The notes beneath the pieces are model-generated. The model ran no database searches, was not told where the DNA came from, and was given only the letters and a program-made list of their open reading frames with translations. Below are positions 3,044-5,201 of a stretch of 29,955 nt of DNA, in pieces. A program made the translations under genes and the position numbers. The first letter of the stretch is position 1. Each line of letters starts with the position of its first letter. Source of the DNA: Candidatus Bathyarchaeota archaeon (lineage in GTDB: Archaea > Thermoproteota > Bathyarchaeia > RBG-16-48-13 > JAGMEO01); contig JAGMEO010000001.1 of assembly GCA_023128135.1 (NCBI GenBank), positions 1-29,955 on the forward strand, written 5' to 3'.

Positions 3044-3158
3044 TTCATCACCTAAAGATAATGTGTTTATGAGTAACTTCTATTAAAGAAATTCAGTGTT
3101 AATCGCTATCAACTTTTTAAATTATGAGATCTGTGTTTTTATCTCTAGTCGTGATTTT

Positions 3159-3692
3159 ATGTCCGAAGAAATAATTGAAGCAAGTTTCAAAAAAAGCGGA
3201 GTCATAATTCCATCTCAAAAAGACGCTGATCTTTTGTATAAAAGCGGCTATGGGATTTTACATAAACAAGATGAAGGATCAATTTTAGGATCATGCGAAA
3301 CACTTCACTTAGTTGCTGAGAAACGGCTTCATGTAATTGATAATGAGAACCGTAAGGAACTAAATTTCCCAACGCTGCTTGAAAAGTTCCGAAGTAAAGA
3401 TGCAGAGATATGGACTAGATACCTAATTTACAGGGATCTTAGAAGTAGAGGCTATGTTGTTAGAGACGGATTCAGCTTTGGGATAGATTTCCGTTTATAC
3501 GAACGAGGCAAATATGGGGAACAAGCTGCAAAGTATATTGTCTTTGGTATATGTGAAGGAATTCCGACACCTATCAAGAAGCTTAGTGAGATTCTTCGAT
3601 TCGTTCAAAGTACAAAAAAGAGTCTCATTCTTGCGGTTGTGGATAGGAGAGGTGAGATCGTGTATTATTCACTTTCTAAACTTACTTTTTAA
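3159..3692 (+). CDS. endA: tRNA splicing endonuclease subunit, probably the structural (beta) subunit
   Basis: YLIYRDLRSRGYVVRDGFSFGIDFRLYERG and LILAVVDRRGEIVYY match the EndA C-terminal domain. The catalytic His position reads EQAAKY instead of xHSxY/HAxY. ATG 3159 chosen as start. Confidence 0.88.
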   Translation: MSEEIIEASFKKSGVIIPSQKDADLLYKSGYGILHKQDEGSILGSCETLHLVAEKRLHVIDNENRKELNFPTLLEKFRSKDAEIWTRYLIYRDLRSRGYVVRDGFSFGIDFRLYERGKYGEQAAKYIVFGICEGIPTPIKKLSEILRFVQSTKKSLILAVVDRRGEIVYYSLSKLTF

Positions 3693-4855: not shown

Positions 4856-5009
4856 CGACAGCCACTCATGTTAGACCTGACTGCACCACCAGGGCTATAT
4901 TTGATATGATGATTAGAAATTTGGAACTATATAGCTTATTTAAGCATTTACATACCTTTCCATCTCCCAAAAACATCAAAGAAAATAATTTTTGGTCCCG
5001 CGGGAGCGA

Positions 5010-5039
5010 GTTTCAGCTAAACATTAAATTGATTATGCT
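5010..5039 (-). other. T-loop tRNA intron at 59/60 (30 nt)
   Basis: AGCATAATCAATTTAATGTTTAGCTGAAAC. Helix TTCA/TGAA, bulges AA|A and AC|T, outer helix is the T-stem. Confidence 0.88.
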
Positions 5040-5061
5040 TTTGAACGCCCGACACTCCGGT

Positions 5062-5107
5062 GTCTGTTAGCTTGGTATGTTAAGTTTTGTCTATCTAAGG
5101 TAGACAT
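5062..5107 (-). other. Canonical 37/38 tRNA intron (46 nt, possibly a composite of two)
   Basis: CTGT/ACAG helix, bulges AG|A and AC|A. Confidence 0.85.
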
Positions 5108-5114
5108 CTACAGC

Positions 5115-5145
5115 GTCTCCGTCCTTTTCATTTGAAAAAGTGGCT
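5115..5145 (-). other. tRNA intron at 30/31 (31 nt)
   Basis: AGCCACTTTTTCAAATGAAAAGGACGGAGAC. Helix CTTC/GGAG, bulges CG|A and AC|G, inner hairpin CTTTTTC/GAAAAGG. Confidence 0.87.
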
Positions 5146-5201
5146 CGGAAGCTCTACCAAGCTGAGCTACCGCGGGATAAATCAAAGAAAATGAAAATTG
5201 G

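Follow-up and report, generated by a model that had tools for sequence, protein, structure and literature searches.

A 46-nt tRNA-Tyr intron in Bathyarchaeia is probably one intron, with a conserved tail complementary to the D-loop

Among tRNA introns, that of tyrosine tRNA is, to our knowledge, the one retained most persistently in both archaea and eukaryotes, and what it does is only partly understood. Archaeal introns at position 37/38 are cut at strict or relaxed bulge-helix-bulge motifs (hBHBh', hBH, BHL) (PMC4090602), and the types of enzyme that cut them have been described (PMC5829648). Multi-intron, highly disrupted tRNA genes are found in Thermoproteales and other archaea, with introns at separate positions (PMC4090602, PMC3728597). 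In Sulfolobales and Aeropyrum, stand-alone H/ACA sRNAs act in trans to guide formation of pseudouridine-35 in pre-tRNA-Tyr (Muller et al. 2009, PMC2651775), with a distance of 14 nt from the target U to the ACA (PMC2651775). An archaeal pre-tRNA-Trp intron encodes a box C/D guide, as cited in PMC4090602. The eukaryotic tRNA-Tyr intron is required for pseudouridine-35 and m1A58, according to the passages of PMC12168002 and PMC2651775 that deal with it.

We analyzed the tRNA-Tyr gene of a bathyarchaeal genome, which lies in a 29,955-nt stretch of DNA (the window) and has a 46-nt intron at position 37/38. This intron shares with canonical introns its position, a predicted 4-bp central helix with bases 32-35, the anticodon stem as outer helix, and 3-nt bulges that would be cut after the second base; EndA genes are present as well. 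It differs in that the inner helix is a self-closed hairpin and that a 20-nt tail between the hairpin and the central helix is predicted to pair with the D-loop. Like the highly disrupted genes, this one appears to carry three protein-spliced introns, two of them non-canonical (30/31 and 59/60). Two introns at one junction, which the initial annotation had proposed for the 46 nt, would set it apart from those genes, and our results do not support such an arrangement.

The likeness to guide RNAs is partial. As for the Sulfolobales and Aeropyrum sRNAs, the candidate target is U35 of an intron-containing pre-tRNA-Tyr, and the tail in relatives combines a lower stem with a 3' guide-like strand on G30-G34 and with an ACA some 15 nt away from the target. 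Here, however, the elements are in cis, the lower stem would use the D-loop, and guide activity is a candidate function read from sequence; moreover, we saw no 5' guide strand and no K-turn or K-loop in our alignment (alignment A1, described below), and the guide strand is lost in the window. The pre-tRNA-Trp intron, as far as the citing account describes it, similarly pairs with an exon of its own tRNA for a purpose other than splicing. In contrast, the window intron has no C/D boxes (RUGAUGA, CUGA) and no Rfam match to H/ACA or box C/D families even at E-values up to 10, and its partner is the D-loop. With the eukaryotic intron, within what those passages cover, it has in common the tRNA, the intron position, and conservation for a role, putative in the window, in precursor modification; eukaryotic tRNA-Tyr introns are short, and D-loop pairing is unreported for them in the parts of the literature searched.

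The gene, its introns, and the nearby endonuclease gene were placed as follows.

4993-5176, minus strand: tRNA-Tyr(GUA) gene with CCA encoded, recognized by reading the sequence; no call by ARAGORN and no Rfam match at E-values up to 10
5176-5146, 5114-5108, 5061-5040, and 5009-4993, minus strand: tRNA-Tyr exons, from reading the sequence
5115-5145, minus strand: intron 1, position 30/31, 31 nt, from reading and the spliced fold; present in most of 72 Bathyarchaeia orthologues
5062-5107, minus strand: intron 2, position 37/38, 46 nt, read as a single intron from sequence and folding
5010-5039, minus strand: intron 3, position 59/60, 30 nt, from reading and the spliced fold
3096-3692, plus strand: paralogue of the splicing endonuclease EndA (Pfam PF01974 and PF02778)

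Joined, the exons are predicted to fold into a 76-nt cloverleaf of -32.7 kcal/mol with a 7-nt anticodon loop, CUGUAGA, and an AT-rich, promoter-like stretch lies upstream of the gene. The genome that carries the window is a 620-kb metagenome-assembled genome (G000) with two EndA paralogues of about 190-200 aa, the second at G000:C67:7302-7559. With two paralogues, the enzyme would fit the heterotetrameric type, for which relaxed and non-canonical motifs are substrates (PMC5829648). The paralogue in the window sits in a tRNA cluster, beside heavily interrupted genes.

When run with intron search on the whole of G000, ARAGORN called 22 tRNAs and missed the true tRNA-Tyr. Several of its calls have implausible anticodons (e.g., Tyr-ata, Asn-att, and Phe-aaa) and are probably mis-parsed multi-intron genes. 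As standard tRNA finders miss the gene, genomes of this kind would be recorded as lacking a tyrosine tRNA.

The initial annotation had drawn attention to two 3' splice signatures, to pieces of 19 and 27 nt, and to the complementarity of UGUCUA and UAGACA, and on reading the sequence we found all of these where it had placed them. Two structural elements need to be located.

5088-5106, minus strand: hairpin directly after the 5' bulge, with a 6-bp stem (5106-5101 with 5093-5088) and loop 5100-5094; pair probability 0.79-0.96
5062-5067, minus strand: true 3' splice signature, ACAG at 5067-5064 and AC at 5063-5062, the latter forming a 3-nt bulge with A38 at 5061; pair probability 0.52-0.84

The ACAG of this outer signature pairs perfectly with C32-U35 (5113-5110), and the 5' bulge consists of A36 (5109), G37 (5108), and the first intron base (5107). 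The inner look-alike lies within the hairpin, with ATAG at 5094-5091, AC at 5090-5089, a putative cut after 5089, and A at 5088; its AUAG pairs with C32-U35 using one G.U. A cut there divides the intron into 5107-5089 (19 nt) and 5088-5062 (27 nt). The stem of the hairpin is made by UGUCUA (5106-5101), the exact complement of UAGACA (5093-5088).

We compared the folds of the anticodon arm plus intron for the outer and the inner splice site. The bulge-helix-bulge fold at the outer site has a free energy of -10.5 kcal/mol versus -2.9 kcal/mol for the fold at the inner site, a difference of 7.6 kcal/mol. For the inner helix, a pair probability of about 0 is predicted at 37 C, and at 80 C it does not exceed 0.006. 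The outer site has a 4-bp central helix (CUGU/ACAG), the bulge AC|A38, and the 5-bp anticodon stem, and its central-helix pairs are kept in all 72 orthologues; the inner site lacks flanking helices, outer and inner alike. At the outer site, the 6-bp hairpin closes the 5' bulge A36-G37|A, and the inner helix h' is set apart from the central helix by 20 nt on the 3' strand. These 20 nt between hairpin and central helix make the splice motif a relaxed one, for which cleavage specificity is assumed.

If the 46 nt were nested or tandem introns, a 19-nt intron (5107-5089) would leave first through a CUGU/AUAG central helix and a canonical 27-nt intron would follow. This is suggested by the pairing of AUAG with C32-U35 followed by AC|A, by some orthologues (e.g., L048 and L056) in which AUAG is the actual 3' strand of the central helix, and by the rarity of the strict inner motif in shuffled sequence. 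In 20,000 shuffles of the intron core, the stricter form A[CT]AGACA arose in just 2.4%, and the general form RYRG-NN-A in 20%. The general form also occurs in 28 of the 72 orthologous introns, mostly in the same place, the 3' strand of the hairpin. From these frequencies, the inner look-alike is real yet only mildly unusual.

Comparison of orthologues argues against use of the inner site. The hairpin is conserved and covarying across the 72 aligned Bathyarchaeia orthologues (alignment A1), with double changes in 7 of 8 stem pairs. In a sister genome whose gene is 95% identical, ATAG is replaced by GTAG, by which the hairpin grows to 7 bp and the would-be inner helix is weakened; the other two genera of the window's family have GTGG and GCGG in this place. 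The inner motif is thus degraded in the closest relatives while the hairpin is kept, which points to selection on the hairpin and not on an inner splice signal. Our folds and alignment show the inner ATAG-AC|A to be the descending (3') strand of the hairpin rather than a splice site.

We then asked how intron length varies among relatives, using tRNA-Tyr genes from 40 relatives, from 250 genomes of the class and 400 of the phylum, and from a pattern scan of all species representatives. The same intron family, 41-68 nt long and always with both modules and a D-loop-complementary tail, accounts for 144 of 157 distinct pairs of D-loop and intron, and hairpin and tail are present together in 72 of 72 orthologues across the class. 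A comparison for 27-nt-only tRNA-Tyr introns had been suggested by the initial annotation; among the 144 distinct relatives, we found no intron consisting of either the 19-nt or the 27-nt piece, and the shortest was 41 nt. The proposed division into modules of about 19 and 27 nt stands: the two modules are conserved across the phylum, but they are a hairpin and a D-loop-pairing tail, not introns.

With no flanking helices at the inner site, a fold 7.6 kcal/mol worse and of near-zero probability, sequestration of the site in a hairpin of probability above 0.9, an inner signature unconserved in genus and family, and none of 144 relatives with a one-module intron, we regard tandem introns, or a fourth intron spliced recursively, as highly improbable. 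Had it been true, it would have provided the first case of archaeal tRNA introns being spliced recursively; the lead is closed as unsupported.

A second possibility, which the initial annotation had raised for a duplicated splice site, is that the hairpin serves to silence the inner motif as a duplicate or cryptic 3' site. The motif does sit within a strong, conserved hairpin, and the 3' regions of several orthologues have tandem look-alikes such as ACAGCAGAA. However, the hairpin predates the motif and has a far wider distribution, being present in all relatives, most of them without a good inner motif; it covaries freely; and there is no trace of a duplication. The resemblance of the inner to the outer signature follows from the intron 5' end, as UGUCU is complementary both to the hairpin strand and to the AGACA at the 3' end. 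We consider a silenced duplicate unlikely, less so than tandem introns.

The 46 nt at 5107-5062 are thus best read as one 37/38 intron, very probably excised by EndA in a single step, with a tail that would engage in an alternative, D-loop-paired fold. The anatomy, conservation, covariation, and energies of this intron are established here; from them we infer single-step excision. In the mechanism that we propose, the archaeal splicing endonuclease would remove all 46 nt at once at a relaxed bulge-helix-bulge. The anticodon stem would serve as the outer helix and CUGU/ACAG as the 4-bp central helix, the bulges would be AC|A38 on the 3' side and A36-G37|A on the 5' side, and the hairpin after the 5' bulge would substitute for the inner helix.

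Two further observations concern the ends of this intron. The intron's first base, which nominally supplies the third position of the 5' bulge, covaries with the nucleotide that immediately follows the hairpin (alignment A1 columns 72 and 99: A-U 27, G-C 17), so one conformer can have the hairpin reaching into the bulge; the window has A.A at this pair. At the 3' end, many orthologues (among them L005, L016, L037, L063, L080, and L085) have tandem look-alikes of the central-helix strand, ACAGCAGAA and ACAACGGAA, and others have a small hairpin inserted between the conserved ACA and the 3' central-helix strand in use. From these look-alikes and insertions, the ACA is conserved independently of the splice helix.

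The second part of the intron is a 27-nt conserved tail with a core, UACCAAGCU, that is reverse-complementary to the D-loop of the same gene.

5069-5077, minus strand: tail strand UACCAAGCU, 8-9 nt, complementary to the D-loop; 9 of 9 Watson-Crick pairs with 5163-5155, and covariation
5155-5163, minus strand: D-loop A14-A21, AGCUUGGUA, partner of the tail by complementarity and covariation; the D-arm sequence occurs once in the genome
5078-5087, minus strand: linker; YCAGCC in relatives, complementary to G30-G34, and CUUAACA in the window, where this strand is lost

In the 72-sequence alignment A1, about 98% of cells in the helix between G15-A21 and the tail are paired, and the partners change together. 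All 72 sequences pair at D-loop position 17, 42 by C-G and 30 by U-A; position 16 forms C-G in 70 and U-A in 2; and position 20 forms U-A in 44, U.G in 11, A-U in 8, and C-G in 5, and is unpaired in 4. The covariation score of the whole structure is 0.263 versus 0.151 for shuffled alignments (0 of 500 reach 0.263), and sliding the partner columns lowers it to 0.073 or less. When all column pairs are scanned without bias for mutual information, the one at position 17 comes second; RNAalifold, run unguided, selects the D-loop/tail helix and extends it to G22. Switches at position 17 occur in several families, within one genus (G235 versus G217, G199, and G223), and within the window's own family; we estimate about six independent switches from family and genus labels, the sequences being related and not independent.

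We examined other partners for the tail and its neighbors. A general property of this genome's introns is excluded, since only tRNA-Tyr, 1 of 24 tRNA genes, has such a complement to its D-loop; the pairing is gene-specific. A trans target common to many tRNAs does not fit a D-arm sequence unique to tRNA-Tyr in G000, nor the case of genome G004, in which a different tRNA has the UU form and tRNA-Tyr and its intron have CC and GG. A local tail hairpin, GCCU/AGGC, was rejected on the 30 sequences with a UUGG D-loop, in which the tail is AAGC and the left half usually GCC: the tail tracks the D-loop with a perfect match and not its own left half, with which it would leave a C.A mismatch. Pairing of the hairpin 5' strand CUACC with the D-arm was likewise rejected, as the hairpin covaries internally and does not follow D-loop position 20.

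A modest reading of these data is that the covarying pairing of intron and D-loop represents a genuine alternative fold of pre-tRNA-Tyr, one that may function in maturation; in the literature searched, we found no description of such a pairing. Presumably the helix forms while the intron is still part of the precursor, not by pairing of the tRNA with the excised intron. It offers a concrete, mutable handle on what the intron does to its precursor, and it bears on why the intron is retained; it might control folding, put multiple splicing events in order, or take part in self-guided formation of pseudouridine-35.

We predicted the folding of 156 full precursors with a nearest-neighbor model restricted to nested structures, in which the mean pair probabilities are 0.62 for the tail-D-loop helix, 0.06 for the D-stem, and 0.03 for the splice helix. 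The predicted minimum-energy fold of the window precursor has the tail-D-loop helix enclosing an alternative pairing that presents the 30/31 intron, and it has no D-stem. Because the tail-D-loop helix crosses the anticodon stem and the central helix, a nested energy model cannot evaluate both together. In short forms of the intron, the linker between tail strand and splice helix is only 1-2 nt; together with the crossing, this argues on geometric grounds that the helix is incompatible with an L-shaped body. In the proposed mechanism, pairing of the tail core UACCAAGCU with the D-loop of its own tRNA would give the precursor an alternative fold in which the D-stem cannot form and, at least under the nested model, neither can the splice helix. 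In these predictions, the precursor probably alternates between an open fold, with tail and D-loop paired, and a splice-competent fold.

The 30/31 intron (5115-5145, minus strand; alignment A1 columns 25-64) occurs in most of the 72 Bathyarchaeia tRNA-Tyr genes and in some other Thermoproteota. Its internal helix covaries strongly and contains the top mutual-information pair of the entire alignment. The 30/31 splice helix uses D-stem bases A23-C25, so a non-cloverleaf fold is needed for it.

One function that the tail-D-loop helix may have is that of a folding clamp, not a guide, which keeps the precursor out of the L-shape. Such a clamp could provide the fold for cutting the 30/31 intron, keep unspliced tRNA-Tyr from charging or translation, or free the T-loop for modification. 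The predicted folds agree with this in placing the helix around the 30/31 splice helix without a D-stem, in line with the difference between 0.62 and 0.06 across the 156 precursors, and the helix is perfect in the window although the guide-like strand is lost there. The yeast tRNA-Tyr intron is also needed for m1A58 in the T-loop, according to the part of PMC12168002 that concerns it. However, the tail is conserved equally in lineages without the 30/31 intron, a clamp leaves the conserved CAGCC and the fixed ACA spacing unexplained, and the basis for it is thermodynamic prediction. We hold this function to be quite possible, short of an even chance.

The features that a clamp does not explain resemble an H/ACA guide. 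In most relatives, the 5 nt immediately upstream of the tail strand are CAGCC, complementary to G30-G34. A strand of this type, with at least 4 of 5 pairs to G30-G34, is present in 115 of 124 introns; an ACA follows 2 nt past the tail strand in 108 of 124; and in 100 of the 115, the first guide base lies 15 nt from the ACA. The guide-like fold is fully nested, and several predicted folds leave U35 unpaired beside the hairpin. The candidate lower stem is the covarying 8-9-bp helix, one strand of which is the D-loop, and in the window its ACA is also part of the splice helix. The window has UAACA as guide strand instead of CAGCC, with 3 of 5 positions pairing with G30-G34, and alignment A1 shows neither a separate 5' guide strand nor a K-turn or K-loop.

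From this speculative guide layout in the tails of relatives, we tentatively suggest, with more doubt than for a folding clamp, that the tRNA-Tyr intron of Bathyarchaeia and Nitrososphaeria and its own D-loop could make up a built-in H/ACA-like guide that presents U35 for pseudouridylation before splicing. D-loop and tail would form the lower stem and CAGCC would pair with G30-G34, leaving U35 (and A36) unpaired next to the hairpin and the ACA 15 nt downstream. In the window's genus, judged by sequence, the guide strand is decayed and the lower-stem strand persists.

We also surveyed the protein TruD/Pus7 (PF01142). It was found in 363 of 401 genomes of the phylum, tail-bearing lineages included, a tally that takes in one unpublished genome, G618; thus, a distribution of TruD/Pus7 complementary to that of the tail was not found, which counts against the guide function. 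G000, with a completeness of 76%, has weak fragments only (best E-value 1e-8), and the search gave no TruD/Pus7 for several families of the phylum whose completeness is high (f7, f12, f22, f38, and f46).

The tail is carried by Bathyarchaeia, Nitrosopumilus, Nitrosotenuis, Nitrosotalea, Cenarchaeum, Nitrososphaerales, Conexivisphaerales, and Caldarchaeum and so spans Bathyarchaeia, Nitrosopumilales, Nitrososphaerales, and Caldarchaeales. The intron-D-loop helix is therefore common to two large archaeal classes, culturable ammonia oxidizers included. The tail is absent from ten introns of Sulfolobales, Desulfurococcaceae, Acidilobaceae, Aeropyrum, and related Thermoproteia, which have a 7-nt D-loop and a long-hairpin intron, and from the one Thorarchaeota tRNA-Tyr gene in the set. 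The genome-wide pattern scan also matched sequences in Thermoplasmata, Micrarchaeota, and bacteria, which we discarded as other tRNAs with an acceptor stem that matched by chance.

In three loci from Sulfolobales/Desulfurococcales metagenome-assembled genomes (L134, L155, and L200), the tRNA-Tyr introns begin with UCAGCC, the motif of the Bathyarchaeia-type tail, without a D-loop complement and with a D-loop of 7 nt. Six other loci (L020, L027, L130, L144, L174, and L199) have extra tRNA-Tyr introns in the D-arm or D-loop, reaching at most four introns per gene, and keep the tail.
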